A stretch of DNA of 53,625 bases from Psammoneis japonica (lineage: Eukaryota), in assembly GCA_008632985.1 (NCBI GenBank), contig QPGO01000332.1, positions 1 through 53,625 on the forward strand, written 5' to 3'. Shown here piece by piece: positions 22,145 to 46,817 of the stretch (the first letter of the stretch is position 1; the number at the start of each line of letters is the position of its first letter). Made by a program: the position numbers and the translations under genes. The notes beneath the pieces were generated by a model. The model searched no databases, was not told the DNA's origin, and worked only from the letters and a program-made list of their open reading frames with translations.

Positions 22145-22949
22145 GCTTCCTTCTTCGTTTCTAGACTGGAATTTAAGAATATTATCGGCGCTTCTGACAA
22201 CAAACTACCGGTACTATTTGTAGCATACTCTAGCTTCCTTCTTCTCGTTGATACTGTTTCGCATCATGATAAGTTTTGGGCTCCCTGTGCATTGATGCGA
22301 CAACGTTGTTTCCGAGGTAAAGGTAGTTGCATGAGATGCATTGCAATTGAAGGGGAAAGTGAGGTGTCCAAGTCTCTGAGCTGCCTTCTCTCCTCCCCAG
22401 GTTACCGTAACTTTCTTTCTCACCACGCACGGGGTGAGTTCTTCCCATGGTGGTGGGGGGCAAATTTATTTCCACTTCCCACCTTGGTTTTTTAGCCCTA
22501 CCGTATTTCAAATTACAAATCATTGCTACTCGTGACTCGGATTTTTCCCGACTCGGGATTCCATGAGAGAGTAACAATTGCCCCAAAATATATGGTAGGG
22601 CAATAGTTGGGCAATTGATCAAGTTTCGGGCGGACGGATGGTCATCAGGCCGGCAGCATGGTCGACTTCGCAGAAGCAATAAGATGATCATCATTCATCG
22701 CCCGCTGTATTCGTTCTTTGTTGCTCTCTAGCGGTTCGAGTTTAGGTGGGCAAAACACTTGACAGTTGCAGAAAAACGTCTTTTGTTGAGGAAGTGCTGT
22801 TGTCAGAAAAGAGAGTGGTCTGTGAAGGCAATATTTGTGTTTGTTTTCGCTATATACCGTACGAACAACAGGTATTTTTCGTAAGATTCACTACATTGTC
22901 TACGTGACTTGCGACTGCAGCACTTGTGTCGAGACTGCAATTCAATACT

Positions 22950-25645: not shown

Positions 25646-25703
25646 TTAAAATAGAATTCCAGTAAATAATTGAGGTTAGTTTTTGCGCTTGCTTTTCTAG
25701 ATT

Positions 25704-26741
25704 CTAGCCAAACTTGATATCGCAACTCATGGGGTAATGGTCACTGAGACTATTCCCACCAGCATCTGTCGGCGTCAGATACTCACAGATGGAACCTTTT
25801 CCCGGTGGGACAGCGGTGTTACTCGTATCGTGCAGGATATGATCCAAGGCACGTTGAGTATCGGTGATTTCCCCCGGAATGCCGGCGAGAATCAGATTGT
25901 TGTTGAGTGGGTCAAACGAATATTTCGTACTGCTGGACTTTAGCTCAAGATCATCAGCCTTATCAACATTGTCGCATAGAGCTCGGGTGTGTTCACCTTG
26001 TCTTCGTTGAAATCTCCAACCATGAGCACGAGTTCATTGTCTATATCCTGATCATCAATGAAGGTACGCATTGCCTCATACTGACGCCGACGAACATTGT
26101 GATTTTGAACCAAGAACCATGTGTGGATATTAAACACATTGATCATGACCCCATCCTTGTCAATTCGGGCGTACGACACACCCTCATCCAAACGACACTC
26201 GTTAGGAAGACCACATGCATCCCGAAAGGCTCTAAATTCATGCTTCACAATGGGACATTTGGAGTAAAGTGCCAAACCAGACCCTGATGATCCACGATCG
26301 TCGTAAATGTAGTGACAGTAACCCGCCGCAATCATGGCATCAAGGACTGTACCTTGTTCGGTCCACATTTCCTGAAGAGCCACAACATCGTAGGCATCAC
26401 CGGGAGATTGGGCAAACCATTCACCGATCCGAGCAGCTCGATCTCCCAGTGCCCAAATGCCATCTATTGCTGTCCGAATTAGGTTGAGGTTGTAGCTCAT
26501 TACGAGCACAGATGCAGCATCTGGAGTGCCAGCCGCGCACTTGTCGGATGTTGTGCCATGTTGGAAGGTATGATCCTCTTCGTCGCCATCCACACACACG
26601 CGGCACCATGCATCTTTGTCACATGCATCATTGGCAAAGAGTTTCCGAACACAGCAACTGCTTTCGCATTGGCTGCTCTTGGAGCATTCGCTGCCGTTGG
26701 GAAGCAGCGTTTTGAGCAGTGGTGGCAGTGGGAATCATCAT
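25704..26741 (-). pseudogene. Secreted EEP-family (neutral sphingomyelinase-like) phosphodiesterase, disrupted by Copia insertion and a 1-bp frameshift
   Basis: Motifs MSYN, DVVALQE, SGLALYSK, FNIHT, VGDFN; after a frameshift at ~25965, LDHILH and LSDHYP, with stop at 25704. A Cys-rich N-terminal segment precedes the catalytic domain. Confidence 0.85.
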
Positions 26742-27088
26742 TGTGGGAAAGCAGCCAGAATTCTAAGATTCGTCTGCACTTTCAGTGATTAAAAGCTGCA
26801 ATTGCGATGCAACAATCAATCAGCAACTTTGTTGCACCAAAAGTTGAGAGGTGACAATCAGTGCGTTAGAAAGATTATGAGCAGTTTTTATGAGCAGATG
26901 CAGCTGCCATCTAAAGGAAACGCGAAGTTAAACAAGCGCGAAGCTAGGAACAAACATCGCATCCGTGACTCGGCTTCCGCGGGATTCGAGACTGAGCATC
27001 GCACACGGGGTTCGAATCTTGGATCTCTGACTTGAATCGTGGAGGTCCGATGTTGTTGTAAAAACATGCAAACATGAACATTGTCACA
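26742..27088 (-). repeat. 3' LTR of Copia element
   Basis: Direct repeat of 33505-33851, differing at 7 sites. Confidence 0.97.
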
Positions 27089-27131
27089 CTCCCTTCAACA
27101 ATGTCGGGTGGAATGATGACTCGAAAACGTC

Positions 27132-30100
27132 TTGCCACTTAAGGAGCGATTTCCTGTGTTTGACAAAGAGATTCTGTGGTGGAGGTTTGGCGAAAATGTC
27201 TGCAATCTGATCCGCCGCATCAATTGGCAGGATTGACACGAGACCTTTGCGAACATGGTCTTTAAAGTGGTGAAGAGTGAGGTTGAAGTGTTTTGTCCGA
27301 GGACGCATCTTGGGCAATCTCGCGATCTCCAATGCTCCAGAATTGTCTTCAAAAGCCTTGCAATGTACGACTGGTGTCTTGGAAGGGACATCATGACCGT
27401 GATCCATAAATTCTTGAATGAGGTTCACAATTGGGATGGCGCTTCGAAGACTTTCCGAAAGAGCGACAAACTCAGCTTCAGCAGTGCTGAGCGCGATCTG
27501 AGTCTGCAGCTTGGACGTCCAGACAATCGGACATCCTGCATGGGTGATGACAAACCCAGTTCGAGATTTGGAAGTGCCGACGTCATCGGGTGCAGTCAGC
27601 TTATTCCAATTGCCCACAAAGTCCGCGTCGGCATGAACTTCAAGGGACTTGTCCATTGAGGGCTGCAGTGTGATGCCTTCAGTTCTGGTTGACCTCAGGC
27701 ACTCACAGAGCCATGGCACGGCTTCACCGTGAGAAACCTTGGGATCAGAAGAAAAGCGTGCAACTTGGTGCACCGCGTAAGCGACATCTGGTCGAGTGCT
27801 CTTCTCCAGAAAATTGAGCTTGCCGATGATGGATCGGCAATGAAAGCTCCCTTGGAAAGCAGGCTCACTCATGTGCCTGTGGAGGATCTTGGAGGAAGGA
27901 GCAGGAGCAGACTTGTCTGGCAGTCTCTTTGGAATGTTGGCCATCTCCAGCATCTGATTGACAAGGTGAGGTTGGGCAAGTTTCATTCTGCCATCTGGTG
28001 GTGTCTCGACGTTGACACCGAGACAGTCGTCCAGAGTGCCTTGACCATCAATGTCAAAATTCTCATCTCTGACATCCTGCATCGCCTTGTCAACAGCAGA
28101 CTTGTCAGGGGATGCAAAGATGCCGTCATCGACACAATGAATGAAAATGACATTGCCGCGAAAATGCAGGCACTCATCAACCGCCGATTGTACGAAACCA
28201 ATCCTTGACAATCCATCACGCAAGTGTTCTTGCCATGCTCTCCCTGCTTGCTTTTGTCCATGTAAGTTCTTGAGCAACTTCAGAACATGAGTCTCACCAT
28301 TGCCATGTTTTGTTTCAATTCCTGCAGGTAACTCCATGTGCACATCACATTCGATGTCGGCATGCGGGTGCGCCAGAACGAAGTCGACTTTGCGTGCACG
28401 CCACTTCTTAAGAATGGCAATGATCAGCAGGAGCCGGACAGTGAACCAGAAGACCACGGCAGAGCAGGTCTGGAAGTAGTTGACAGCATACTCTTGCTTT
28501 CCGCCGTGCACATTAAGTCGGGACTTCCATTTGAAGACGGCTTGGGTCTTAAGGCATTCGCACAACCAGCGCACAGTAGCGCAATGTCGGACAGACGACT
28601 GTCGTGCTTTTTTTGCGATTTGCGCGACAAATTGCCGTCGACGCCGACGATGACGATGACATTTTTCTGATTGTCTTACAGAACGACTTTAAAATATGCA
28701 CTTAATAGCGTTATCAATAATGCTCTTAAGAACATCAATACGTAAAGAAAGCTACCCGGACGAGCTCATAATCGTTCGATAATTGAATGCATCAAATGAC
28801 AGTCAAAAAACAGAGCTCAGTATTGGTATGACGTTTTGCGATTGAACGAAGGCTGCTCCTGGTCTATTTCATGACTTGATATGTTCGTAAATTTAATAAT
28901 CTAAATGTCTATAACGCTCAAAAACTCCAGGACACGTCGATGTCGTCGCTATCATTACGACAACGCACCGCCGTCATGTCGCCGATTTTTAGCGATGCTC
29001 GTGTAGCGCGCACGAAGTTTCCAGTACAAAAAAAATTCAGAATGTCAAATCGTCTTGCCATCCATCAGCTCGTTGTGCGAATACGTTAATGTCTCTTTTG
29101 CGCTTCATAGACCACACCGAAGGGAGAACATCAACATCGTCAGGTACGTCCTCTCTTGGAATGAGTGTCCAATGTTTCCTTTCAATGTGATCATTGACCT
29201 CCTTAACACAGGCCTTGATAAATTCGTCTCTGTCAGGTTCACGCATGGCCTGATCAAAGTGCATGGTGCCGGGGTCCGAGCTCGCCAGAAAAGAGATGGG
29301 TGAGTCCACATCGTCCTGCAGTTTGTAATCATCCTCGTGCATCGCATCATAACATGCCTCTGCCTCTGCATTGTAGGAGACAATGCCTTGAGCCCATTGC
29401 AGTTGGCTCTCGCGCATCCTTTCGGTCGGGCGTCGTTGTCGGCCGGACCCACTGGCACTGGGTTGACCCACAGTGCGCTGTGGCTCAGATGGTGCATCAG
29501 AATCATCTGGAGGCGTGCATGGCATTTCATCATCCGGTTGGGCATTGTCAAATGAGTCATCAGTGGTGGACGTGTCAGCAGGATGCAGCAGCTGAGACGG
29601 GACATCCGAGCTCGGCTCAGGTGGTTCCGTTGTGGCAGGGACTGATCCCTCAACCGGTGCGTCACTTGATTTCCCAAAGATGTTGAAAGTGCTCCTTGTC
29701 TTGAGTTGTCTGAAACCTGCAATGCCTTGCCATTGTGAGAATGTAGGAGGATTCCCAGCAAAAGGGCGAACGGTCTCAAAGAAGTCGTCAAATTGTGCGT
29801 GAAATTGCGGCGACACGAGTCCGGTCTGCAAGTTCAAAACCAAGGCAACTGAACCTGCATGTCTTGTTGATGGTCCCAAATTGATTCCCAACTTTGCCCT
29901 TGGGTCCCACTTGGGCAGCCTGCCTCCTCCCTGCAACCGGTTGTGCAAGGCGTAGACGGGACAGCCGAAGGTGTGGTGTTGTTTGAGATTGGGCTGGACC
30001 TTGACGGACGAGAAACGTTCCAGCGGAGAAGAGCCATCCTCGTGATTCGGCAAGTGATTCTTGATCTCGTTTGAGTTCCTGAGAGCGCTTGGCCACAAGT

Positions 30101-31888
30101 TCAACTCAACAGCCGTTGGCCATCTCACTTTTGCATGCAGGAGTTGCTTCCGAGATTGCTCTTGGAGGTCCCTCACTCTTTTCTCCGCGATGCCGTTTTG
30201 GAAGTGGGCGTTGACCCCACAACAGGATGTTGTTTGCTGTTGCTTCTTGACATCTTGTATGAAAGCATTGTCAGCAAATCTTCCATTGTCGGCGTGGTGG
30301 TGTTGAACACGGACGTGCATCCGGCGTGCGAATGCCTCGAAAGCGTGCTTGGCTTCGAGCGTCTCGGCTGAGGCAAGTCCTTTCTGCAAACACATGCATC
30401 CCAATCCGCTGAAATGATCAACAAAATTGTCGCTGCTCGATGCCTTTGTTTCGTAGGTCTCCCTTTGAGCTGTGGGATCAATCCAGGAGTGGGACTCTCG
30501 AGCTGGTCGACGGATGCGGCTTCTCCAGGCGAAGTTGCCAAGTGGATTCGTCGGTTCCGCTTGGACTTGGAGCGCCATGGTCGTTTCGTCATGGCACCGT
30601 GTGGGCAGCCGGCACATTTTGGGTTGTGTGCCTTTGTGAGGTGTTTCGGTAGAATGCCTGGGGCGGCCAATGGCTTTGTCATTTTGAATGACATGTGGCC
30701 CAGGCGGCAATGCCAACGCAACAGTTCACCCTGGTCATCTGTGGCAGCAAGGGCGTCATCATTTGGTGTGATGTTGATGGGTTCCGGCAAGTCCTGCTGT
30801 GCCTCCGGTGTCGTGAAATCTCTTAGGTTTTCCTCGTCTGAGTCTGAACGACTTGCTCCGTCTGTTGGCTCAAATGAGACAGGAGCATCCTCATCAGCAG
30901 TGTTGCGTGCGTCTTGCGTCTCGGAAGGACGTGTCTCGGATGGACTTCTGAAGACGTCTGTGTCAATTGCAGCCTCGTCATCATTCGCAATGCTCTCGTC
31001 ATCTGGTGGTATGATGTGAGCTTGACAGGCCACGTGCTCGATAGTTTCGACATCGGTTTGTCCTTCGACAGCGGCTGCAAAGGTCCGGCATTTGTTGGAA
31101 CCGGGTGCGGAGCGCATCTTGGCGACATTAGAGTTGGCGGACCATGGAATCAGGCGATGGCACTTGTGCTGGTCCCACATCAGCAACAGTCCGTCGTCCC
31201 CAGTCCAAGATGCGGTTCCGTGAGGCTCTGGCGTGTGGTCATTAGCTTGTTGGCTCCATTGCTGCGGGCAGAGAAGACAATGAGGTAAGTCCGGTGCGAG
31301 CAGCGCGTCTCGAATTTTGATGCTGTGCACTCGTCCCATGTCGTCCTCAATTGCCCACTGCACTGTTCCTTCTCCCTTAGCACGCAAGTGGCCCTTGACA
31401 CCGAGTGCCACTTTGTTGGATTTGCGAAGAGGACCAATGAAGTGTGCCTCGTTGTTGGACATGGTGCAGGAAGAATGTGAGTCGACACCGATTGCGAATG
31501 AGTCCGAATCGTAAGTGGGCTCCGTTCGCTCGGGACAGTGTGGTGTGGTTGAGTTGTACGCTCCAACCGTCTTGTGTCGCGCAATGACACAGTGAGCCTT
31601 CTTGGTGGCCACTCTGGAGCGGTGACCTGGCCTCGTCGACGTATGATGCCGTGCACAGTGCCTCGTTGGCCGTCGCTGGTAAGTCTTAACTCGTCTTGTG
31701 CCCAGTTCAGCCAGGACATGTGAGATGACCCACTCACCCAGCGTCATTACGGCATGTGACAGGCGCTTACACTTTTCTGAAGGAAGGGATAGCATCATGA
31801 ACAGCAGCATGATCCAGATCGACACTGCACATTTCATGACGCCAGCGACCGCTGTCAGGAGCACTGACACAGTGACGGCCATCTGCAA
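27132..31888 (-). pseudogene. Copia pol (protease, integrase, reverse transcriptase, RNase H), mutated, frameshifted near 30425 and interrupted by a MITE
   Basis: Motifs IGVDSHSS, WHCRLGH, HADNGRF, QNGIAEK, WSMKRKRD, LKNLHGQKQAGR, CVDDG, TRPD, ADADF, EDNSGA, ADIFAKP. Confidence 0.93.
28553..29085. mobile_element. 533-bp non-autonomous DNA transposon (MITE) with TTAA target duplication, nested in Copia RT
   Basis: TTAA at 28549-28552 and 29086-29089. ~15-bp imperfect TIRs GGCATTCGCACAACC / CGTTGTGCGAATACG. Excision restores KRDIKTQAVFKWK. Confidence 0.9.
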
Positions 31889-31924
31889 GGACAGCAGCAG
31901 TGTCAGAGTGAACCTGCAGAGCAG

Positions 31925-33430
31925 TCACTCTTGATCCACTTCGTTTAGGATGGTAGAGATGGCACTTGCGAAGGAGACTTTCTTGTCCGACGTGTCTGTG
32001 GATGGAGCAGACTGTTGCTTGCAGAGTCTACAGCCTTGGTTGCCCGGATCATCAGGTGAGTGTATGACCCAAGCAGTGTGATGTGGGCACCAGTGATAGT
32101 CGCGATTGTTGACGCGCTTGTGACAGCACTGATGACCGTTCACTGTCTTCTTAGGAGCGTCCTCCTTGGGCGGGACTTTCTTCCAGGCTTCGTCCGCTTT
32201 CTGTCTCTGACGTGGAGTGGTCTTGGTCTTCCTTGACCGTGTGCTTCTTTCCTTGGTTGAACCAGCCTTGGCCTTCAAAGCTTTAGATGGCTGAAGGTTC
32301 TGATCCTTGATGGAGTCTACCTTGGCTGCAAGCGCGACGATTTGCTCTTCAGCCGGTGACAGTGCTCCCCACTTCTTCTCGCGCTTGAGGTCAGCACATT
32401 TGTTCAGTGCCAACGTCATGATTTGCGTCGGCATGAATTCCTCACCGTCGTCGCACCTGTCCTTGTGCAACATGATGTGCTTGACGAACACTTCGTCAGC
32501 AGCTGCGGCGCATCCTTTGAATGGGTTCATGACAAGGTCGTCGCACTGCTCTCCTCTAGCTTGGAGTCCGTCAACGTTGAGCTTGGCGCACTTGTTGAAC
32601 TCTTCGATGTCCGAGTCAACAGCCGCCATGTGCGTGTCCAGGCTTGACAAGTTCTCGCGGAAGTAGTTGGTGGTGGAGCGTGTGTCAACGATGGCCTTTT
32701 GCACAAGCAGCTTGAAGAATGGTGTGCCGATTTGATTTCCATTGATCGTGTGGGAATCTATCTCAGCCAATGTCTTGTCTCTTGCTTCCTCCGTAAGGGA
32801 TTGAGAGATCGCCTCGGCCATCTGCACATTGTTCTGTGCTTGTCGCGTAGGTGGATTCGCGAAGGTGTTCGCGTGGGTTCTAACATCCTGTAGAGTGAGC
32901 AGTCCGTACTCGGAGATGAGATCTCGTGGAGTTCCATTCGCGTCGGGAATGGCGAGCATGTCTCCTGCCCCTGTTTTCCATCCTGCCTCGGCAGCTCGTT
33001 GACTGAGTGTCTCACAAAACCGTTTGAGACCTTCTGAATCGCCGTTGAACTCGTGCGGCAGCGGCACAGTGGCTGCGTTCCAAAGCTTGAGGCCTTGCGA
33101 TGTGCCGCAGTCGATGAAGTTGTTGGGACGGTGTTGACCTGGAGTCAACGCGAAGATCGGCAGTGGTGGCACAGGTGCCAGTGGTGGTCCACCTGGCGGG
33201 ACTCCACCTGGTGGGACTCCACCTCCGCCTCCTCCTCCACCTCCTCCGCCACCTCCTCCTGGAGGCACACCGGGAGGAATGACTGGGGGAGGTGCAGGAG
33301 CAACTGGAGCGGCTGCAGGAGCAGGTGCTGTTGCCGGAGCAGCAGCAGTGGCAGGAGCTGCAGCGGGTGCAGCAGTGGGAGCTGCAACAGAGGCAGCCAG
33401 AGCAGCCGCGGTTCGTGTCTGCGTGACCAT
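31925..33430 (-). CDS. Copia gag protein (501 aa)
   Basis: Pro/Ala/Gly-rich N-terminus, FALTPG motif and C-terminal WCPHH..W..H....C knuckle variant, lying just downstream of the 5' LTR. Confidence 0.85.
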   Translation of the reverse strand: MVTQTRTAAALAASVAAPTAAPAAAPATAAAPATAPAPAAAPVAPAPPPVIPPGVPPGGGGGGGGGGGGGGVPPGGVPPGGPPLAPVPPLPIFALTPGQHRPNNFIDCGTSQGLKLWNAATVPLPHEFNGDSEGLKRFCETLSQRAAEAGWKTGAGDMLAIPDANGTPRDLISEYGLLTLQDVRTHANTFANPPTRQAQNNVQMAEAISQSLTEEARDKTLAEIDSHTINGNQIGTPFFKLLVQKAIVDTRSTTNYFRENLSSLDTHMAAVDSDIEEFNKCAKLNVDGLQARGEQCDDLVMNPFKGCAAAADEVFVKHIMLHKDRCDDGEEFMPTQIMTLALNKCADLKREKKWGALSPAEEQIVALAAKVDSIKDQNLQPSKALKAKAGSTKERSTRSRKTKTTPRQRQKADEAWKKVPPKEDAPKKTVNGHQCCHKRVNNRDYHWCPHHTAWVIHSPDDPGNQGCRLCKQQSAPSTDTSDKKVSFASAISTILNEVDQE

Positions 33431-33504
33431 GGCAACAGCAGAGTAAAGTGGAATCGAGAGCTTAAGATCGATTGACTTAACTTGTAGATTTCGCAGAGGA
33501 AGCG

Positions 33505-33851
33505 TGTGGGAAAGTAGCCAGAATTCTAAGATTTGTCTGCACTTTCAGTGATTAAAAGCTGCAATTGCGATGCAACAATCAATCAGTGACTTTGTTGCAC
33601 CAAAAGTTGAGAGGTGACAATCAGTGCGTCAGAAAGATTATGAGCAGTTTTTATGAGCAGATGCAGCTGCCATCTAAAGGAAACGCGAAGTTAAACAAGC
33701 GCGAAGCCAGGAACAAACATCGCATCCGTGACTCGGCTTCCGCGGGATTCGAGACTGAGCATCGCACACGGGGTTCGAATCTTGGATCTCTGACTCGAAT
33801 CGTGGAGGTCCGATGTTGTTGTAAAAACATGCAAATGTGAACATTGTCACA
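33505..33851 (-). repeat. 5' LTR of Copia element
   Basis: Direct repeat of 26742-27088. Confidence 0.97.
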
Positions 33852-33913
33852 ATCATCATGCCAACAAAGACCACAACGGCCGACAACAACATGGGGCACA
33901 CTCCTTGCTGCAT
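33852..33913 (-). pseudogene. Displaced 5' end (signal peptide) of the EEP gene
   Basis: MQQGVCPMLLSAVVVFVGMM joins in frame to IPTATTAQTLLPNG once the Copia and one TSD copy are removed. Confidence 0.8.
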
Positions 33914-35176
33914 TGAGAACTTTGTGTTGTCATTGTGAATGATGATTCGGCATGGGTTCAGGGTCATGGTCCAAGCACTGCAGCAAAAGGCCTTGCATTG
34001 GTTGGATCGAAACGCCACCTTGGTTTGTGTTCTTGTGTGCTGCGTTTCACGTTTCACTCTGAGCTGTTTCTCTTTGCGGTCGACGCAAGGGCGGCGCCGC
34101 ACAAAGCAGCGCACCGCACGCAACTGACATGCATCCATCGAGGGACTGGCAGTTGTCTTGGTGCTCTGGTTTGCTCCAGGTTTGCAAATTGGAAAAGGGG
34201 CATCTTATGCAGTCACCCCACCAGCATGCATCTTGTCTCAGTGAGAAGCAGATGGGTGGCACCACAGTTTTAAAACTGATTGCACACAACAGCCAGCCCT
34301 CCTGCCTGCTGCTGATGCAAAACAAATCTCCGTGCAGAGGTTAGACTCCTCAACAAAACTCAAGGGGACCCACAACTTTCTCATTGGTGGAAGGCAAGAG
34401 TGCCTACAGACCTGCACATTGGTTTGCTTGTGCGGTCACTTGTTGCTTTAACAATTGGCAAAATTGAGTGTGTGTGAAATCCTCTGTGATGACGCACACA
34501 CACGTGTGTGTGTGCCTCTGGGTTGTTGTTCAAAGTTGTCTGGATGGCTGCAAGAGGGACGAATGGTTGCAGGCAGGAGACAAAAAACATGGTTTCTTGG
34601 AGGCCACGTGTGGAGTGGCCTTGATCTCACAAACCAAAACAGAGCAAGCATGATGAAGGAATTGATCTTTCACAAGTTTTGTTGCACCAAGGTTGATGGC
34701 CAACTCATCACACAACATGTCAAAAGCACACACAGCCCGTTGGGACAACAGCATTGTTGGGTTTGTTTGCAAGAGGCGGTTCATTGACAGGGGGGGTGTT
34801 CAGGTGCTGCCAAGGTGTGGATGTTGTGACCAGCTTTGATGCTCAAGTGTGACCCTCATGGTGTGCTGTCTTGCCAAAACGAGTGGCAAAAAGGCCCGGC
34901 AGGCTGGTCATTGTGCCGGACCCAGATGTGGTCAAAGAGGTGCTTTTGGCCACTTGGCACAATGTCTTCAACTGTGGATGGCAAAAACACAAAAGTCACT
35001 GTTTGGTCACAATTGCAACCCTTGTTTTGCATCTTTGACTTGCTGATGGGTGTCTTTGCTTTCACACACATGTGCAGGCCATGTGAGGTCAGTGCAGGCT
35101 GACAAGACATTCATGATGATGTCTTGGTCATTTGGTGGGCAGTGCTGTCCACTTGTCTGGGTCTCATGCTCACTGC

Positions 35177-38100
35177 TGACAGAAATTGAAGGCAAATGGC
35201 AAGAATTCAAACAACAACTCCTCACTGCTGTCTAAATGGCAGATGAGTCTCTGCTCAGAGACCGTCACAGGAGCCAAAAGACGTGTGAGTCGGTACAATC
35301 AGGCTGCTGTCATCATTCTTGTGAGCCTTGTGGCTCGAAAGCAAACCACATCGCGCGCGAACGCGCGGAACTGAAGCACACAAAACTGTGCGCGGTGAAC
35401 TGAACAGCACGCAACATTTTGCGCGCACCCAAATCCTGTTCAAATCCTGTCACTCCCCAGTTTGCTTGAGGGGTCACAGAAACAGATTCGACTTCGGATT
35501 GACTGAAGAACTTTGGAGTCAAAGCACCAAAACATGAGGAGACAAGAAAGGATCAAGATCCTGGAGCAACGTTGCATTCTCCAAGTGGGTCATCTTGAGA
35601 TGAGCTGCGTCTCCCCAATTGCAGATGCCATTGTGCTTTTCAAAGCTCAAGGCACACTTGGGATCTTGTGGGATTCCACATCCGCACTTGCAATGGAAGG
35701 AGCAAAGCTTGGTCTGGTTGACAATGTTGAAGGGCGGGACAACATCACAGGACAATGCAAACAAGTTGAAATCGCCCTCACTTCCTGAGCAAAGGTCGTA
35801 AAGACTGACAGCCGTCTGTTGGTTCTTGGAACGGTTGCCACACTGGGCTGCTGCTAGAAAAACAGAGCAATGCTCGAGCAGGGTGGCATGGCGGTTGCAC
35901 AACTCGGGGAACAGAGCAAGCATGAGTTCAAAGGCACAAGCAGCGGTCTTGTGTTCCACCAATCTGACTGCAAACTCAGCTGCATCTCCTGAGAGACTGA
36001 TCCAATTGGACAAACGAGTCTCAAGGTGCAAGCCTTCGGGGATCGGATTGGAGCAAGATGTCTTGTGGTGCAAGACTGCAGATGTCTGGTTGGGGCAACC
36101 AGCCCCGTGCTGCAAGACTTCTGGAATCCAAAAGGACTTGCCAGTCTTGTGACACGAGTCTTCGGGGATCTAATCAGGAGGCCAAGTCTTGAGGTGCGAG
36201 ACTTGGGGGATCCAATCAGGAGGCCGAGTCTCATGGCGCAAGACTTGAGGGATCCAACCAGGAGGCCTGGTCTCGAGGTGCGAGACTCGGGGGATCCAAC
36301 CAGGAGGCCCAGTCTCGAGGCACGAGACTTGAGGCATCCAATCAGGAGGCCTGGTCTCGGGGTGCGAGACTTGGGGCATCCAATCAGGAGGCCCAGTCTC
36401 GAGGCACGAGACTTGAGGCATCCAATCAGGAGGCCTGGTCTCGGGGTGCGAGACTTGGGGCATCCAATCAGGAGGCCCAGTCTTGAGGTGCAAGACTTGG
36501 GGCATCCAATCAGGAGGCCCAGTCTCGAGGTACGAGACTTGAGGCATCCGATCAGGAGGCCCAGTCTCGAGGTGCGGTGCAGGGAGGATCCGAGGCCTGG
36601 TCTCAAGGTGCAAGACTTGGAGGATCCAAAGACAACGAAGCTGCTTGGATGTCCTGAACTCCTCATCTGATGAACTGGTTGAACTGTTGTGAACAGATTC
36701 AATGATGGGAAAAGGAGGCTCCCCATCAGGAGATGCAAGAAGCAAGTTGTCATCTCCATCACTTCCCAAACGAAGGCTGTGAAGGGTGACAGCGGTCAAC
36801 ACGTGGAGGTTGGCAGCACGTGGTTTGCGGGGTGCAAAGGCTGCAGCTTTGGAAGCCATGGGTGGAGTGTCCCAACTGGTCTCGAAGTGCAGGCCTGCGC
36901 AAGGGTTGCAATCCTGCACTGGGCCGAGGTTGCTTGCAGGCGGGTTGGTCAAGACATGCGGGGCGCGACTGACACCAGTTCTGGGGGACACCTGAGTGGC
37001 GGCACAGTGCAAGGCTGGTGTCAAAATGGCACCGAGTTCACCTGGTTTGGATGGCAAGGGACTCGGCACAGGTGCGGAGGGTGCTGCGCCAGTGGCTGGA
37101 GAGGTCAAGTGGTCCGGACCAAGGCGGCAGTTGCGAAATTCCTCGGGTGTGAGCAACTGGGGTTCATTGGTCACATCATCACCGTTGCAAACTTTGACAA
37201 AGTAGAAGCTGATCAAAGCGGCTAGGAGGTTTCTGTGGGTGCGTGGCAAAGGCACTGCATTGGCGCCGTCTCTGCAAGCAGGTCGGTGGGAGGGTGCATT
37301 CCAATTTATGGGACAGGGCAGAACAAAGAGGGCTGTCATCGTCTTGATTGAGCACAGTGCCTAGAATGCATTCAAAGCTTTTGGCTTGTTGCTGTTGCGT
37401 GAGAACCATGACGGAGGATGGTGCAGCAGAAACAAAAGACAGGAACCAATCTAGAGCGCGATCTTGGCTCGGAGTTTTGACTTGGAACTTGGCTTGAAAA
37501 AGACTTGACTTGAGCTAGACTTGACTTGAAATCTTGGACTGTCTTAAAATCAGAAGTCGCCGGGTTGTGCTGTCCGTTTTGCAGTTGAGTGCCAAACTTC
37601 CCATCCGGTCCGTAGAGTTGTGCTGGCACGTCCGAACCCACGGCTGGCGGCGCTTTGGGTTGCTCACAAGCGGAGTGGCGGGTTGCAAACCCCTGCAGGT
37701 GAGCTGACCAGGGGTGGACAAGACCCCCAAACCGTTCTCATTTTACATCGGTTGGATTTCCCGATCAGGCTGGCCAGTTGATGCAGGCGTTGGGCGCTGT
37801 GGACGAAGGAACCAACGCAGAAAAAAAACACCCTCGCCCCAACGCAGGCTGCAATCACGGCTGCTTGCTCTCACAGTCATCCTCATGGACCCAGTGGAAC
37901 TGCAGAGCACCAGCAGTCTGGGCAGATCAGGCACAATGGACTCGGTGTGCTTGTGGAGTGGTGGCAAAGCCGCAGTCCAAAGAGTGGGTTCAAGTTCTTG
38001 GCCGTGAAGATGTGTGTGTGTGCATGTGTCTTCAGCAACGCAGATCCTTGAATGTGCAGGGTTCTTGACCGTTGACCGTTGAATGGGTGCATGAAGGGAT

Positions 38101-38648
38101 GAGGATCAAGGATGGACTTGGATGCAACCGATGAATGTGTGTCTTCAGCGACAAAAGGCAGTGTGGTCAATCCAGATGTCCAGCGGCAAGGAGACTTGAT
38201 GGCGACGTTAACTTCCTGCCGATGCCTGGCATTGAATGCGCGCAGACTTGCCGATGTACGTAGAACACACACGGAGGTCCACGCAGAATTGAAAAGCGTC
38301 ATCGGCAAATCAACGACGATGATGGCGGTTGCTCAATGGGTTGACAATGAGCAGACTGTCAATCTGACAGAAATTGAAGGCAAATGGCAAGAATTCAAAC
38401 AACAACTCCTCACTGCTGTCTAAATGGCAGATGAGTCTCCGCTCAGAGACCGTTGCAGGAGCCGAAAGACGTGCAAGTCGGTGCAATCGGGCTAGGGCCC
38501 TACTGTCATTATTCTTGTGAGCCTTGTGGCTCGAAAGCAAACTGCATCGCACGCGAACGCGCGGAACTAAAGCACACAAAACTGTGCGCGGTAAACTGAA
38601 CAGCGCGCGACATTTTGCGTGCACCTGAATCCTGTTCAAATCCTGTCA
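35177..38648 (-). mobile_element. Non-autonomous gag-only LTR retrotransposon (3.47 kb)
   Basis: LTRs at 35177-35452 and 38365-38648 with TGACAG...CTGTCA ends, TSD ACTGC (35172-35176 and 38649-38653), and PPT GGGGAG at 35453-35458. Gag-like start MVLTQQQQAKSFECILGTVLNQDDDSPL at 37409. No pol motifs seen. Confidence 0.9.
36165..36627. repeat. 42-bp tandem repeat (~10-11 units) inside gag-like ORF
   Basis: Unit ~GGGGCATCCAATCAGGAGGCCCAGTCTCGAGGTGCGAGACTT, encoding the 14-aa repeat LETGPPDWMPQVS(Y/H/C) on the minus strand. Confidence 0.95.
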
Positions 38649-40329
38649 ACTGCACTGGATGCTGCATGCTGCCCAGCCCAAGTGGCAGCAGCAACCAAAA
38701 ATCAAAGCACAGTGGAAGATTGAGGTGAGGCTCTTCCAGCCAATGAACTACAAGACAAGATGCCCCCCTGGTGCCTGCCAATGGAAGTGATGTCAAGAAG
38801 TCAAAGGGTGTGGGGCACACCCCTGTGGTGCACAGCCAGAAGCTGCAGCAGCAGCAACAATGCCCAAGCTTTTTGCTGGTGATGCTGCACTCAACAACAG
38901 CACATTGTTGGCAAGGCCATTCTTGCAAGTGCAAAAGTTGTTGTGGAAGCAAGGAAAAGAAAACAGATCAAGGCAGCACTTGTCTGTGTGTGTGTGTGTG
39001 CAACTTGGCACTTTTTTGTGAAACACCAACAGTGTGGAGATGATGATTTGGCATGGGCTCAGGGTCATGGTCCAAGCTCTGCAGCAAAAGACCTCGTCAG
39101 TTGGATTGAAATGCCATTTTGGTTGCATTGGTTTCACTTTTCACCACTGTGTGAGAGCTGCATTGGCTGTGGGGTGGTTCTCCACTGTTCTGTTTTTGTT
39201 GCTGTCAATGCAAGGGCAGCAGCATCACACAAAGCAGCCATCGTTCTCCACTCTAGAGCAGAGAGCATTGGAACAAAATGGGGACTTTGAGTTGTCTTGG
39301 TGCTGGTCAACCACTGGCTCGCATCTTGTCTCAGCAAGAAGATGGGTGTGACAGCACTGCAGATCCAAAACTGATTGCATGACAGCCCTGATGAAAATCT
39401 GGAGGTTTGCCTTCACCAGATTCAGGTGAACCCACAACTTTGTCATGTTGGTGAAAGGCAAGAGTGCTTGGGGTCCTGTGAATTGGGCTGCTTGCATGGT
39501 CATTTCTTGCTTCAACAGTTGGCAGAATTGAGTGTGTGTGCTCCTCTGATGTGTGGATTGTTTTTCAAAGCTGGACAAAAATTGTTGGACAAACCATGGT
39601 CACCTGCAGACACCAAACATGGTTTCTTGGAGGCCAGCACTTGCAGAGAGCAGTCTTGATCTTGCAGACAAAAGCAGAGAAAGCATCAAGCTGGTGCATC
39701 AAGGTTGGCTAATTTGTCGCACAACATGTCATGAGCACTGCCAGCTGGGGTGACAACATTGCTGGGTTTGTCTGCAAGAGGTGGATCATTCTTGGCTGGG
39801 GGGTTTCACGTGCCACCAAGGCATGGGTGTCAGCCATGACCAACTTTGATGCTCAAATGTGGCCCTCCTGGTGTGTGGTCTTGCCAAAAAGAACAATGAA
39901 AAGTTGAGGCTGGTCATTGTGCTGGATGCAGTCAAAGAGGTGCTTTTGGCCACTTGGCAATGTCCTCAGCTGTGGGTGGCAAAAAGACAAAAGGCAGGCT
40001 GATGAACCATTTGTGTTGATTTCTTGGTCATTTGGTGGGCAGCATTTTTGTCCACTTGTCTGGCCTCAGGATCCCTGGACACATCATGCTGTCCAGCACA
40101 AGCAGCAGCAGCAGCCAAAAAATCAAATCGCATGCTGAAAAGATTGAGGCAAGGTTCCGCCGCAGCCAATGAACACCAAGACAAGATGCCCCCCTCGTGC
40201 CCACAAATGGAAGTGAAGACAAAGAATGCAGCACTCTTGCACACACTTGCACACACTGCCCTCCTCAGCCAAGTGCATTGTCAGCCACTTCATTGCTCTA
40301 GAAGGAAAATGCACATCCCACCTCCCCAC

Positions 40330-43300
40330 CAATGATGGTGCTGCCATCAAGATCCAGCAACCACATGTTGGCCAAAACTCTGTCACTTTTTGACATCCTG
40401 CTGCTCCACATCATTTCATCCATTTCCTCTCTAGACCCAAGTGAATGTTGAAAGTTTAAGGATCTGACATGCCCACATCAACAAATGGCACAAAAAGACT
40501 TGTGCTTTGCAGAACATTGGTCCAAATGGGCCACTGCGACCACTGCAAGCTCTTGCAGTCACTCACAGGCCTTTGGACATGGCGGGGCGATTTTAGGGAA
40601 AAAGATGGCAACCCTGCAGCAGGGCCCCACATTGTGTGACACTGCACATGAGCAATGCAGTGCTTGGGCCATGGGTGCACATGCTCTTGACTGCTGCACA
40701 GAGAGTCTGTGTGGCACGATCACAGGACCCCCCCCAATGCCCCACTGCATCCAAAGCCCTGGTCACTGACATCAACACTGACAAAATGGCAGGCAAAATG
40801 AAAATGCAAGTGGAACAAAAGCACACACAATTGGGAATCACCAGGACACCTGTCACAGCACACTTGCCTGGCCACCTTGCAGAGGCAGCTCTGAGTCACC
40901 CTGCTGAGTTTCATGGTCTCAAAAGTGTTGCCAGCAGTTTGTGGCATCTGCACATCCAAGAGGAGGTGAGGAGTCCGGCAAAACAACCCCCCTTCTCTCT
41001 GTCTCACCCAGCACAAAGCCCAGACTCACAGCTGCACTGCCAAGATGTGACATCTTCCAAAATGAGGTGTGTGACATCATGTCTCAGATGGCAAAGACAG
41101 TGTGGTTGCATTGCGGGAAGAAAAGGTTGGTGAAGACCAGATGCCACCAGTGTGCATGAACAAGGCAACACACAATGAACACTTGCAAGGCATGCAAGCT
41201 TCATCAAAATGGCCCCAAAACTCAATCAGTCACAGCGTGCTTTATTTTGCTCATGCACAGTGCTGTCAGAAATTGGGGTGGCAAAAAAAATGACGTGCCA
41301 TCATTGTGCACTGACCAAGACCCCCCAAAAAGACACTGAGTGCATCACAAATCCATCTTGTTCAAATTGGGTGCACCAGTGGATGCAAAGTGGAGAGAAG
41401 CACAAGGCTCTCTCAAACGGATGTGCTGTGGTGGTGCAAGTGTGCAAATGCCATCAAAAAGACACCAATGTTGCAGACACAATGACCGGCTGCACCAGAT
41501 GATTGACTTTGCAGGGTGCAACAAAAGCCACAATGATCTTTGGCAAATGGGAAAAGGATGCCAAACAAGAAAACATGGAAAGAACTTGCCACAGCAATGT
41601 TGTTGACCATTCAGATGTCACCCGGACAGCACAGCAATTGAGTCACAAGTCAACAAGGCACAGAGCTGTTTGTGCTGTGTGTGGCAACCAAAGCCCCCCC
41701 CAGGAAACCAAACCCATGCACCAACCTCTTCACTTGTGGCAACAACAGAAAAAGAACCTGCATGAAAAATGCATTGGCTCCATGATGTTTGCCATGTCAA
41801 AATGCGTCAAAGTGCAGTGTGCCATTTTCCATGCCAAATCAGGAATGTTTGGGTCCAATTGACTTGTTCAATCACTGTGCAATCCAAGGTCTGATGATTC
41901 TCCAACACATCCAGCAACAAGACTTTGCAATGGTCCCAGCTTGTCGTGCTGGCTGAGTGCTCCTCAGCTGTTTCAAGGAAGCTGAATGCTGGCCTCGTGC
42001 TGCTTGTCACAATCCGTTTTGCCAAAACAAGACTTTTGTTTTGGCCAGCTGCCATTTGGCCCCTCTTTCAAATGTCTCCACCACCAGTGCCACCAACAAA
42101 CAGAAGCTTGCCCATTGCACAAATGTTTCTGCAACATGCGAGACAAACATTCTTTTGCCATTGGACAACACAGACACTGGCGCCCTGTCTGTCCATCTTG
42201 CATGTTTACAATCAGGGACTGCAGCACATTGCAAAGCCTCCCATGCAGATGCAGATCCGATGCTGTGTGCTCTTGCAACTCCAGAATGTCTTTCATCTGT
42301 CTCCAGCCCTCATTCTGACCAAACTTGTCCACATGGAGTGCAAGAACATGAGCTCAGAGTTTTTGGCATGCTGCAGCCCTTTGGATGATTTGGCTCAAGC
42401 TGTTTTGCCAACTCCATCATTTTGACAGCATGTGGCAGATGCATCCCAAGGTCCCTGCATTTCTGGTGACATCAAAGTCCACATGTTGCCAGCTGCCGGC
42501 ATGAGTTTTTGTTCTCAAGCACATGTTTCAAAGCTGGAGGTGCAGCTGATGAATTGAAAACACCCATTTTTCAGTCAAGTCAAGAACCACAACTTTGTCA
42601 CACAACTCACCAGGGAAGCAAATCTGAGTTGCTTTTGTCATTGGTCTTGTTTCATCCAGATTGCACTCCAAGTTGAGACCACAAATGGCCTCACTGTCAA
42701 GATTGGAAACCTTGTTGGCCATGCTGAGGGCCCAGTTCTTGACCTCAGTTTTGGTTGAGAACACAACAAACTTGTCTTTTGCCAAAGCGGCCCAAAAAGC
42801 CCATCTGAGACTTGCACTGCCATGGCTTTATGTTCTTGTGCAGTTCTTGAAACACATTGGGCCACAAACTGTGGTCTCCACCACCATTGCCTTCAGCCCT
42901 TTTCAGCTCAGCAGCCCTGCTCTTGGTTTGTGCAGTTTGGCAGAGTGCAAAATGTGGCCTGAGCTCATCATTTGATTTTGTGTGGGAAAACAATTAAAGT
43001 TGACCTTGCCCTCATTTGACAGGGAATCACACATTGAGAGGAACTTTTTTCTTGCTTGCTTTGATGCTGGCACCATTTTGGCAAACTCAAATGAATGGTT
43101 GCTGCTCTCTGAGTTGTCAGGGTTCAAATGGAAGCTTTCCTGAAAATGTGACTCACAAATGTTCACAACTTGGCAAGGGAAATTGTAAAGCCACAACAGC
43201 GTCAGTGCAGCGCAGCATGTTTTTTAAAATGTCAAGCTGCAACAAGAGATGCACCTGCAGAAACACCTTTTCAGGAGACATGGACGGTTTCAACAGCACA

Positions 43301-45950
43301 CCATTGCACTCATGCCAGCAGACTGAAACAAAAAAAGCTGCAGGACAAAATCACCATCTGACGCAAGAGCTTTTTGGCCTGCCACCTTGTCAGAAAGCAT
43401 GTCATCCCCTTCCTCCTGGCCTCATGGTGCCATCTCATTTCTCGCCATTTCTGCAGCTGCCCTGAGATTTTCCAAGGCCTGAATTTGCTTTTCCTCTTTG
43501 CTTTTTTGCTTGCCAATCAATGTTTGCTCCAAAGCCCTGCACCTTTCCCTTGCTCTGGCCACTTGCTGCTCCACTTTGACTGCTTTCTGATGCTTGATTT
43601 CTTGTCTGGCATGTGCTTCCACTGCCATTGCCACCAGCAAATTATTTTGCTTTCATGCCATCTCTTCTTCAAGCATCATGCTCAGCCCCTGGTGGGGTTC
43701 CTTCTTGTCTCCTTTGATGTGAGCCACTCTTCTGTCAGAGCCTTTTCTGCTGCCACCGCTGCCAGTTCTGGTGCCTGTGGTGATGGGTGCTGTCATGGTG
43801 TGTTCATGCCAACATTGCAACACCCAGGTTGCTTTGGCAGCATCCTTTGCATTTGGCCATGTCACACTGCAACCAAGCCTCAACAACAAAATTTAAAATG
43901 GGATTTGCAATGCATGTGAAGCAAGGCACAGGCTTGTTGCTCCTGAGTGGTGGGGCACAAGATCAGATGGCATCTCTTGCTTTGACCACTGCACAACACA
44001 ATGTTTGTTGAGGGGATGATCTTTGTGGGTTTCTTCATCAAAGGCTTGAGGATCAAAAGTGAAGCATTCTGTGGAGGGTCATCTGGTTGTGCATGAATCC
44101 ATGCACCAGCATGTCAAAATGTCTGTCATTGTGGCCAGTTGGTTTTGTCTTTGATTGTCAATTGCCTGATGCTGGCATTGCTCTTGACTGGCATGATGAC
44201 GACCAATCTTGTGATCCTGCATGTTGACTTGAAAGACGACTTTTCCAAAACAATCTTGTCACCATGTGTTGCTCTCACCACATGGCTTGCATCATTGATT
44301 TCTGCTTCATGTGCATCTCCACCTCCCTCTGTTTGCAACATGAACAATGGTGTGCCTCCTTTGCTCCAGTGTCCAGCGGGAAATGATTGTCCCATGTGTG
44401 GCAAACATTTCCTTCCAACTTGTCTTCAACATCACCTCAGAACTCATCTGAGATGCAAACTTGCCTTTTCTCAACACATCTGTGTTTCAGGCAATGAATC
44501 AGCAGGCATTCACAGCAAAGTGGCATCATCAGAGGAGCCCAAAGATCCTCCCATTGAAATGGCTGCAACTGGGAACAGTTTGTCTCACTCAAATGTTGCA
44601 CCTGCTCCACAAGTTCACTTGCAACACAACCCTTGGCCATTGAAATCCAATCATGCTGTGGCACTGGTGCAACAGTCATGTTTTCCCCTTGAGACACCAC
44701 CATTTGGCCAGGCACCAACAATGTTCCAGAGTGTGCGTTCCCAGACAACAATGGATCGGTGGTTTCTGAAACATTTGGTGACAGCAGGTCTCTTCTTGTT
44801 TCTGACATGTTTGCCACTGATGTCAACTCAGGTTCTTTTGTTGTGCTGGATTGAATTGAGCCCCATTTTGCTGATGATGATCTTGTTGTCTGTCTAATCT
44901 TGACATTCCTTTTGAGTTGCTGTTGTCTCAGGTCCTCTCCTCTGGCAAACAGTTTCAGGTTGACAGGCTTTTGGTCGATGAGAGAAACAGAGGGAGTGAT
45001 GGCAGCATTTCACCACAACAGATGCATGGCAAAACTGATGTGCTGTTGTCAGGTGCAGCTTTCTCCACTTGCTCAGCTTGGGCAACCACCATGTTGATGC
45101 AGTCCACAGGACACGGTGGCAACAGGCACAGCTCTCAACCGGCTGGCGCAGCAGTCACTGCTCAGGGAGCAACAACACCAGCCATCCTCTTCATCTGTGT
45201 CATCGGATCAAACTGGAAGCAAAAACTGTGGCCATGCCACTGCTGAATCAAGCTTGACAAGCATGAGCAGTTCCACCTCTGCACAGCTGGGAACTCAGAA
45301 AAAGAAACACAGAAGCCATGGCAGTCATCTTGGAGTGCAAGTTTTTGATGGTGCAATCTGAATCACAGCTTTTTGAATCCATGCTTTGCATCTGGAATGG
45401 TGACAAAAAATTGTGGATCTCTCAGCCCTTCCTGTTTCTGGTTGTCAAAAGAGAAGGATCCCAACCCGGCTCATGAGATCCCACTGCAGCCTTGGTTGCA
45501 CCATGCAGGCAGAAGGTGGAGTGGACCCAACTGATTGCAGGGTCAACAGGAAGGCCACTTTTGTCATTTTGTCATTGCAAATGATGTGAAGTGAGCTGCC
45601 ATCACAATTTTCTGGGACCGTTCTTGTTCTTGTGTTTGCCACAGCAGGTGAAAATTGATTGGGGATGAGCAAAACATGCGGGGGGGGGGCAACAACAAAA
45701 CACGCACAAAAACAACACACAGGAAAACTTGCATGACAGTTGTCACTGATGTGCAAATGGCAAGTGCAACTGCAACAGGAGACATCAAAGAAAATGCTTC
45801 TAGTGTGGAGAGATGACAGATGGCCATTTTCAATGAATCTCATGGTCTTTTGACTGGGTTGGATGGGCAAAAACAAAAGATCGTCATCATTTCTGTCTGT
45901 CTGCAGTTCATCTGTTGGAATGATGCCGGCAGATGCAACTTAGACAGATG
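40330..45950. mobile_element. Highly decayed unclassified repeat(s), including a 3'-5' exonuclease-like remnant
   Basis: TpA and CpG are nearly absent. Minus strand 42560-42780 ICGLNLECN...ATQICFP...VVVLDL resembles a DEDD exonuclease ExoI region (weak). Confidence 0.4.
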
Positions 45951-45984
45951 CTCAAGACCCATCACACTTGTGGTGGGAAGCCAG

Positions 45985-46817
45985 GTGGAGGGGTGCAATT
46001 TTGGGGTGTAAAAACACGCGTCCCTTAAAAAACATTGCAGCCAACAAATCTGGCACCAGACAGAGACATGCATTTTGTGTCATTGACCACTCAGTGGTTG
46101 GTGATTGCAGACTTTTTCATGTTGGTTTGTCAGTTTGTTGCCATTTGAAAGTGTGTCCCTTGGATTTTGGAATGGCATGGGCTCTTTAGTGTGCAAGTGA
46201 ATCACTCGAATTTGTGGAATGATCATTGAGGACATTGTGGTTCATGGGGACTTCCTAAAAAATTGACAAATTCTCTGCGATGGGTGCGTGGAACTGTTTT
46301 TCAGTGGAGCTCGAAAATGCTGTAAAAGATGCATTCCAGCTCTGGGTGGGACCGCACACTGTGATGCTGAACTCATGGATGCACCAAACTGTGACATCGA
46401 CAGTTTTTTGGATCGTGCCGCATGTCGTGCACGTGGAAAGGTGTGTGACTTTTGTGAAAATGTGTGTCATTTTGTGGCACACTCATTGAGCAATCTGTCC
46501 AACAGCTTTTGACATTTTTTGTTGCAGCACAACAGAATTGTGCAGGGCAGGCACATTGTTTGCAAAAATGTTGAGTGGTGAGAGGCACAATTGCACCTCA
46601 AACTTGGCAGTTTGTTTGATGTTGAAGACAAACATGTCCATTGATTTGCTCACACTGCGGAGCTGGCACGCAAAATTCCAGCGATTTGATGTGCGCAAGG
46701 TTGCAGCGGAGCCGCCAAATGCCATGGTGTTTTGATGCAGTCTCATGAATGTTTCTTGCCATGACTTCCAGCTTGTGTCAACAATTGATTTGCGATTTAC
46801 AGTCATCCAATTTCACA
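45985..46817. repeat. Relic related to the MITE at 48163-48871
   Basis: 46691-46820 aligns with 48557-48760. 45990-46020 (GGGGTGTAAAAAC) matches the MITE subterminal repeat. Confidence 0.55.

Follow-up and report, generated by a model that had tools for sequence, protein, structure and literature searches.

We analysed a 53,625-nucleotide stretch of Psammoneis japonica DNA (contig QPGO01000332.1 of NCBI GenBank assembly GCA_008632985.1, positions 1 to 53,625; the window), which contains two long terminal repeat (LTR) retrotransposons, a 3.47-kb element that we call LTR-A and a Ty1/Copia element that we call Copia. We consider it likely that transposon DNA in this diatom-like nuclear genome loses both TpA and CpG to TpG/CpA while it resides in the chromosome, the TpA part by adenine deamination and the CpG part by deamination of 5-methylcytosine (5mC). 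The changes have a defined dinucleotide context and direction, affect the two strands alike, are restricted within the window to mobile DNA, and take TA before CG. The two elements are laid out as follows, with composition given as observed/expected dinucleotide ratios (o/e) and GC content.

26737-26741 and 33852-33856: target duplication ATCAT of Copia
26742..27088, minus strand: 3' LTR of Copia (element orientation), 347 bp
27089..33504, minus strand: Copia interior; TA o/e 0.14-0.21, CG o/e 0.72-0.79, GC 0.50-0.55
33505..33851, minus strand: 5' LTR of Copia (element orientation), 347 bp
35172-35176 and 38649-38653, unstranded: 5-bp target-site duplication ACTGC of LTR-A, directly outside the LTRs
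35177..35452, putatively minus strand: left LTR of LTR-A (a 3.47-kb non-autonomous LTR element), 276 bp, TG..CA ends
35453..38364, unstranded: LTR-A interior, about 2.9 kb; TA o/e 0.11, CG o/e 0.56, GC 0.54
38365..38648, putatively minus strand: right LTR of LTR-A, 284 bp, TG..CA ends; 8 additional bases at 38492-38499

A preliminary description of this DNA had claimed that sister LTRs differ only at pyrimidine-purine (YpR) dinucleotides and show no transversions. Realignment bears this out, with 0 transversions and 0 non-YpR changes in both pairs. Its counts for LTR-A were exact: 16 sites (5 TA versus TG/CA, 7 CG versus TG/CA and 4 CA versus TG) and one 8-bp indel (CTAGGGCC, 38492-38499). These sites group 20 differing nucleotides in 276 aligned columns, all of them transitions, and divide into TA versus TG (4), TA versus CA (1), CG versus CA (5), CG versus TG (2) and CA versus TG (4). 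The Copia counts hold as well, at 7 sites (3 TA/CA, 2 CG/TG and 2 CA/TG) made up of 9 differing nucleotides over 347 bp; one transversion in the alignment of the Copia repeats falls outside the LTR end.

Dinucleotides that are YpR in both copies cover 52% of the aligned columns in LTR-A and 49% in Copia, and the probability that all sites would fall there by chance is 3e-5 for LTR-A (16/16) and 7e-3 for Copia (7/7). As a control we used a genic repeat of about 0.3 kb in the same window (17350-17664 versus 19657-19954, 84% identity), in which 23 transitions and 25 transversions are found and 12 of the 23 transitions lie in YpR. Against this ratio, the absence of transversions among the 29 differing nucleotides of the two LTR pairs has P = 5e-10. 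A second control came from outside the genome. Of 77 metagenome loci of related Copia elements, 25 had an LTR-like pair (14 of these being short, 100%-identical ends that are probably assembly overlaps), and together they show 72 transitions and 63 transversions, with 32 of the 72 transitions in YpR. The YpR-only pattern is therefore not general to Copia LTRs. Within the window, the internal repeat 46819-46945 / 47146-47272 has 16 transitions, all in YpR, and 1 transversion.

LTR pairs alone carry no direction, as the preliminary description had recognised in taking it from the protein motifs. The direction given there, from TA and CG to TG/CA, holds on four lines that agree: protein, family majority, composition and doublets. 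For the protein line, we compared the Copia pol pieces with the best 80 of 120 listed homologues (P0121-P0200) over the locally well-aligned part only, leaving out the misaligned gag piece and calling a column conserved at 70% or above. The element mismatches 80 of the 482 such columns, and 34 of the 80 mismatches can be explained by a single transition: 17 TA>TG, 9 TA>CA, 3 CA>CG, 1 CG>CA and 4 others, with no TG/CA>TA at all, that is, 26 losses of TA against 0 in reverse. Among the 21 conserved Tyr columns, 3 keep Tyr, 6 read Cys and 6 read His, and none of the 26 conserved His columns or the 9 conserved Cys columns reads Tyr in this alignment. The catalytic box of reverse transcriptase (RT) is YxDD; in Copia its Tyr reads Cys. 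The context flanking edited and retained TA beyond the dinucleotide was put aside, being confounded by codon structure (Tyr codons force C or T at +1).

For the family line, contigs of one public study were matched to 33400-36000 at 80% likeness. We took as the family majority a letter held by at least 60% of the depth, assumed it to be ancestral, and compared it with the window inside the transposon parts. Summed contig depth in this public run is 245,000-338,000 over the LTR-A LTR, 3,800-6,100 over the LTR-A interior and about 55 over the single-copy flank, so that each LTR site is decided by sequence equivalent to thousands of copies; the LTR-A family is huge, and consists mostly of solo LTRs or LTR fragments. 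The 30 family rows listed contain 6 CG>CA, 3 CG>TG, 4 TA>TG, 4 TA>CA, 2 TG>CG, 0 TG/CA>TA and 11 others; among them TA>TG/CA outnumbers its reverse 8 to 0 and CG>TG/CA outnumbers its reverse 9 to 2. Relative to the family, the left LTR of LTR-A shows TA>TG at 35373 and 35397 (sister-difference sites with a TA majority of 95-96%), TA>CA at 35347, CG>TG at 35252, and CG>CA at 35276, 35301, 35409 and 35413 (the five CG positions being sister-difference sites with a CG majority of 91-98%). At the doublet 35347-8 the family has T in 97% and one contig end reads TA; 35314 is ambiguous (C 57%, T 43%); and at 33708 in Copia the family has TA (97%). Among the rows listed, 2 of the 5 TA-versus-TG/CA sister sites and 1 of the 4 doublets are polarised individually at 95% family support or more. 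Two tiny runs of the same sample contain, of this stretch, little besides LTR pieces. An exact 25-nt word from the LTR-A LTR had 0 matches in metagenome contigs.

The third line of evidence is composition. Across the window dinucleotide content is sharply bimodal, with normal values in genes, a loss of TA in young elements (Copia, LTR-A and the repeats at 46-53 kb), and a loss of both TA and CG, at unchanged GC, in old relics (7251-15750 and 38654-46250). Outside the two elements it divides as follows.

1-1000: first block of the window, erased; TA o/e 0.07, CG o/e 0.32
1501-7000: genic region with a PurK/PurE-type gene; TA o/e 0.58, CG o/e 1.03, GC 0.473
7251-15750: erased block; TA o/e 0.04 (24 TA), CG o/e 0.13, GC 0.482; CA 972 versus TG 960
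16001-26500: genic region with a ThrE gene and a hybrid histidine kinase; TA o/e 0.60, CG o/e 0.92, GC 0.470
33857-35171: erased old repeat, the target of the LTR-A insertion; TA o/e 0.06, CG o/e 0.34; depth in the public run that of single-copy DNA
38654-46250: erased block; TA o/e 0.04, CG o/e 0.12, GC 0.480; CA 900 versus TG 879
46251-53625: TA-depleted, CG-retaining repeat region; TA o/e 0.11, CG o/e 0.74, GC 0.549

In both large erased blocks CA and TG stand at 1.8-1.9 o/e in nearly equal numbers. On this block map of one window the neighbouring genes are untouched, and mobile DNA alone bears the signature. None of the 40 ORFs (open reading frames) scanned in the erased and TA-poor blocks, 25 of them within the two large erased blocks, reached the cut-off for a Pfam family; the best match below it is a weak RVT_1 (17.7 bits, 49484-50689, minus strand).

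The doublets, sites at which one sister reads CA and the other TG, supply the fourth line. The ratio of single to shared sites yields an estimate of how probable a hit is per copy; for LTR-A, p(TA) = 0.71 and p(CG) = 0.20. Decay of TA and CG together then predicts 3.6 doublets in LTR-A, and 4 are observed (P = 0.48). With CG as the only source, 0.44 would be expected (P = 0.001).

These results bear directly on repeat-induced point mutation (RIP), or plain cytosine deamination, as a source of the pattern. Under that explanation CG would decay to TG/CA and these to TA, TA would be a product, and a CA-versus-TG site would be a CG hit twice. It accommodates sister differences that are all YpR transitions, which are directionless by themselves. 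RIP raises TpA and lowers GC in repeats; here TA o/e is 0.04-0.2 in the repeats and 0.6 in genes, and GC shows no fall (0.48 against 0.47). Following up the preliminary description, which had held that ancestral CA/TG at the TA sites would point to a RIP-like direction, we looked for TG/CA>TA and found none, against 26 opposite changes in pol and 8 opposite changes among the family rows listed, and doublets arising from CG alone fall far short of those seen. Polarisation, composition and doublets thus refute the RIP-like direction within the window, and we give such an explanation hardly any credence.

The preliminary description had further placed the mutations in the chromosome, after insertion. 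This is upheld by the sister LTRs, which are bracketed by target-site duplications, and by the presence of changes on either strand of a single LTR. One template gives rise to both sister LTRs, and any difference between them must postdate cDNA synthesis. Editing of one strand, as cDNA or RNA, would not leave both strands of the left LTR of LTR-A changed. The contrary explanation is that the transcript was edited as RNA, or the cDNA deaminated, before integration, the chromosome merely inheriting the pattern. Such editing would account for a Copia interior far more TA-depleted than the Copia LTRs, and for two changes relative to the family that both LTR-A LTRs share, TA>TG at 35402 and CG>TG at 35420. 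Yet sister LTRs made from one edited template would be identical, the sense-strand TA>CA changes (9 of 26) are impossible by editing of sense RNA, and single-copy relics without recognisable coding capacity are fully erased, among them 33857-35171, which is single-copy today by its depth in the public run. Judged from the shared changes, part of the damage is older than the LTR-A and Copia insertions; chromosomal editing of a parent copy explains such earlier damage equally well, and most simply. Editing before integration is thus very improbable in our estimation, and the sequence evidence points to a process acting in the chromosome, on chromatin domains, more than to editing of RNA or cDNA.

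Several observations do not sit easily with decay of TA and CG to TG/CA in the chromosome, and should be weighed against it. Copia pol contains three CA>CG coding changes, and the family rows listed include TG>CG reversals at 33796 (family TG 96%) and 35944. Eleven of those 30 rows fall into neither class (3 TT>CT, 1 TC>CC, 1 GA>GG and 6 more that are mostly transversions); they lie mostly in the interior, where contig coverage is sparse. Copia has 2 doublets where TA and CG decay predicts 0.19 (P = 0.016), an excess that points to unequal site rates or to something outside the model. The Copia LTRs retain 7 shared TA even though the interior has lost most of its conserved Tyr; a large part of the damage to the interior probably existed in the edited parent copy and did not arise here. 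A short insert within Copia, described below, is unedited (TA o/e 0.70, CG o/e 1.86) and is either very young or exempt. Finally, the assembly may itself have been made from the sample of the public run, and the evidence comes from one window of 53.6 kb.

The extremity of the erased blocks, together with the possible identity of the only public run holding the stretch with the source sample, could suggest an artefact, in which modified bases were misread, or a TA- and CG-poor composition that is native or selected. Over the erased flank 33823-35202, a 1380-nt contig from the public run differs from the window at only 3 letters, and the two LTR copies differ from one another, unlike the outcome of systematic misreading. 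As for a native composition, conserved catalytic and structural Tyr residues have been replaced by Cys or His, and the 77 related Copia loci from metagenomes have TA o/e of 0.37-0.98, against 0.14-0.21 in the Copia interior here. The loss of Tyr and the TA-richer relatives indicate that TA was lost secondarily, with harm to the element, and that its scarcity is neither original nor favoured by selection. The chance that either explanation is right appears negligible.

TA and CG were not lost at the same pace. Single and shared sites give a loss of TA 3.4-5.6 times faster than that of CG. Young elements retain CG where the old blocks lack both dinucleotides; TA is therefore lost first and CG later. 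At the borders, TA depletion extends about 250-500 bp past the CG-erased cores and the Copia LTR edge, as in the bins 1251-1500 (TA 2, CG 15), 7001-7250 (TA 3, CG 14) and 26501-26750 (TA 2, CG 13), and also 15751-16000. This overrun looks like spread from a chromatin domain. The old repeat into which LTR-A inserted resumes at 38665-38796, and a second, uninterrupted copy lies at 39040-40222. Its copies have 22 CA-versus-TG doublets over four aligned pieces, 15 of them in the pair 34360-34998 / 39422-39996, as is expected when both copies are saturated. The second copy begins only about 250 bp downstream of the interrupted one (33939-35175 plus 38665-38796), in a tandem or LTR-like arrangement.

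Because transitions occur at YpR only, sister LTRs diverge only at YpR, and dating by LTR divergence yields ages that are too old, as the preliminary description had also argued. In the 309 non-YpR columns there are 0 differences (95% upper bound about 1%), compared with an overall sister divergence of 7.3% in LTR-A and 2.6% in Copia.

On both strands of chromosomal mobile-element DNA, then, the two self-complementary YpR dinucleotides are removed by transitions, TpA being converted to TpG or CpA (A:T to G:C) and CpG to TpG or CpA (G:C to A:T). The likely mechanism is adenine deamination at TpA on marked chromatin combined with 5mC deamination at CpG. The TpA part may belong, as one type of process, with the TpA-only hypermutation known from the chlorarachniophyte Bigelowiella natans, discussed below, and its most likely cause would be enzymatic adenine deamination on silenced or foreign chromatin. 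For the CpG part, 5mC deamination would be the simplest cause, because diatom transposons are CpG-methylated, by DNMT5a according to the accessible text of PMC9998398. Targeting would depend on chromatin state and not on sequence homology, since TA loss passes the block edges by a few hundred bases and a single-copy relic has been erased.

Two other mechanisms would produce the same changes. In the first, one pathway performs both YpR steps: a single deaminase or complex with dual activity on A and C (of the ADAT2/TadA type) acts on marked chromatin, and there is no separate decay of 5mC. Both losses do occur in the same blocks, with the same products, strand-symmetrically and at unchanged GC, and the accessible text of a preprint (bioRxiv 10.64898/2026.01.13.699255) cites ADAT2 enzymes with deaminase activity on both A and C in DNA. 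The two losses are nevertheless separable, for in the Copia interior and at 46251-53625 TA o/e has fallen to 0.11-0.21 with CG o/e still at 0.72-0.79; the B. natans hypermutation is A/T>G/C only, with CpG unmentioned in the same accessible text; and CpG decay in methylated transposons requires no special enzyme. We regard a single pathway as unlikely. The second mechanism involves oxidised pyrimidines, with a TET/JBP-type dioxygenase acting on the thymine of TpA (giving 5-hydroxymethyluracil (5hmU) or 5-formyluracil, which pairs with G) and on 5mCpG, so that T>C arises at TpA and C>T at CpG. It has the attraction that both targets are 5-methylpyrimidine-purine steps and both products CA/TG, and 5-formyluracil mispairs with G. 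Neither the window nor the literature that we found supports thymine modification in diatoms, and the struck strand is undecidable from sequence, TpA being symmetric; oxidation therefore seems to us a decidedly improbable cause. We return, then, to adenine deamination at TpA and 5mC deamination at CpG.

Two proteins among the best 80 of the 120 homologues, both from other assemblies, have a similar signature. P0121 is damaged at 13 of 24 conserved Tyr columns (11 Cys and 2 His) and P0136 at 10 of 24 (6 Cys and 4 His), and the median number of Tyr>Cys/His changes across the 80 homologues is 0. From these sequences, the process is probably not unique to this genome. A bolder proposal is that diatoms have a genome-defence editing system opposite in effect to RIP, in which adenine is deaminated at TpA in chromatin-marked mobile DNA, possibly with the same machinery acting on cytosine at CpG, until both palindromic YpR steps have disappeared at constant GC. 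Such a system might be old and widespread in the stramenopiles, alveolates and rhizarians (SAR), because a chlorarachniophyte and 2 of 80 public Copia polyproteins show the TpA signature. We put this forward only tentatively, and think it rather doubtful.

If an editing system of this kind did extend across SAR, transposon dating and ORF prediction would be systematically distorted in SAR genomes. In the window itself, LTR-divergence ages are inflated (0 non-YpR changes against 2.6-7.3% overall), and RIP indices would miss the signal because GC is constant. In dead elements all six frames stay open over very long distances, and gene callers will over-predict there. Examples are the dead repeats at 35854-37360 and 49189-50689, with long overlapping open frames on both strands, up to 401 aa, which arise because TA loss removes TAA and TAG and leaves only TGA. 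Transposon-directed mutation biased from A:T to G:C is almost unknown; we found one report, a preprint of 2026 that concerns viral insertions in an alga of the Rhizaria. A TpA signature on diatom-like LTR retrotransposons, with CpG loss beside it, suggests a broader defence-like system, and diatoms are a major phytoplankton group with genetic tools, which makes the responsible enzyme testable.

LTR-A has two direct terminal repeats with TG..CA ends (TGACAG..CCTGTCA in both LTRs) and a target-site duplication within the 4-6 bp range, as an LTR retrotransposon should. No Pfam family reached the cut-off in the four interior ORFs scanned, and the element is therefore taken to be non-autonomous. 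A tRNA-complementary primer-binding site was not recognised in it. A purine run read by eye, GGGGAG on the minus strand, adjoins the left LTR, and from this run alone we infer a minus orientation. The interior also carries a 42-bp tandem array (from 36144 or 36155 to 36576) with an 84-bp higher-order alternation, in which one column pair has all four YpR states (TG, CA, CG and TA). We rejected the array as a polariser because the column majority of such a higher-order structure is not ancestral; its units differ from that majority by 32 transitions and 10 transversions, with 23 of the 32 transitions in YpR.

The element at 26742-33851 belongs to Ty1/Copia by its RVT_2 domain downstream of the integrase, its LTRs and its target duplication. 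Its interior comprises four ORF pieces (gag; protease-integrase; the C-terminal part of the integrase; RT-RNase H), with Pfam matches to RVT_2 (1.5e-25), gag_pre-integrs (1.5e-8) and SH3_retrovirus (4e-6), and by tblastn the element is collinear with a 1481-aa homologue. When the window was searched by tblastn with 8 Copia homologues, the matches examined, those of 3 of the 8, were to this known element only. Exactly at the gap of the protein match lies the insert mentioned above (28549-29089, about 0.5 kb), which resembles a miniature inverted-repeat transposable element; it has 22-nt inverted arms that are 86% complementary, and TTAA at its start and end.

Among the genes, the PurK/PurE (AIR carboxylase) gene occupies two overlapping frames, 1756-2523 and 2499-3296, which may reflect a frameshift, a short intron or an assembly error, and the ThrE-family gene at 19488-21066 is likewise split into two frames. 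The hybrid histidine kinase (22885-25266) has relatives of up to 59% identity. Its named relatives, at 39-40%, are diatom proteins, an MMETSP entry from Corethron hystrix (taxid 216773) and an entry with an 'Sro' identifier that we take to be from Seminavis, and on this account we treat the host as diatom-like. An idea that the DNA might carry 5hmU as in a dinoflagellate was rejected, the named relatives of the kinase being diatom proteins.

In the literature that we searched on diatom transposons, RIP, hypermutation, dinucleotides and deaminases, we found no report of a TpA/CpG signature in diatoms, and the accessible text of PMC2806351 does not mention dinucleotides, point mutation or deamination. 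The signature does share features with several known systems. Like fungal RIP, it consists of transitions only, in a dinucleotide context, in repeats and mobile DNA with sharp borders against genes; it inactivates coding capacity, and sister LTRs diverge after insertion. RIP, however, makes TpA from CpA/TpG and lowers GC, whereas here TpA is destroyed and GC is unchanged. Many diatoms have RID-related DNMT4 genes, whose function the accessible text of PMC9998398 gives as unknown. Decay of methylated CpG resembles the CG part of our pattern, which is polarised 9 to 2 among the family rows listed and is strongest in the oldest repeats, but it covers that part only, and the CG o/e reached here over 8 kb, 0.12-0.13, is extreme. 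Editing by ADAR/ADAT and APOBEC enzymes has in common with our pattern A>G changes where T/U stands 5' of the A, clustering on nucleic acid derived from repeats, and a defence-like outcome. Those enzymes act on RNA or single-stranded cDNA before integration and mark a single strand, unlike the changes here, which affect both strands and set sister LTRs apart.

The closest comparison is with B. natans (bioRxiv 10.64898/2026.01.13.699255; what follows is drawn from its accessible text, in which diatoms are unmentioned). In mutation-accumulation lines of that species, two integrated viral regions, of giant-virus and virophage DNA, mutate about 1000-fold faster, almost only at TpA to TpG/CpA. Among coding sequences poor in TpA, RT and DDE domains are over-represented, and an ADAT2-like adenine deaminase is proposed. 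The host there is a rhizarian with viral insertions and the evidence is experimental; here it is a diatom-like stramenopile with LTR retrotransposons and unclassifiable repeats, and our evidence is comparative, from sister LTRs, family majority and protein consensus. Depletion is deeper here (TA o/e 0.04, compared with a Rho of 0.45 in the B. natans viral region). CpG is also lost in the same place, leaving GC-neutral blocks free of TA and CG, so that the changes are not A/T>G/C only: changes from CG to TG/CA are seen at 7 of the 16 sites in LTR-A and in 9 of the 30 listed family rows, and may be a second, independent process. In both cases TpA is the target (here in 26 of 34 pol transitions and 8 of the 30 family rows listed, with 0 in reverse), and it changes to TpG/CpA on both strands. 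In both, foreign or mobile DNA is hit and ordinary genes are spared, in our case within one window. Long-term TpA depletion with enrichment of CpA and TpG, in B. natans in clustered 1-kb windows, is likewise common to the two, as is a direction of mutation opposite to the usual GC>AT bias.

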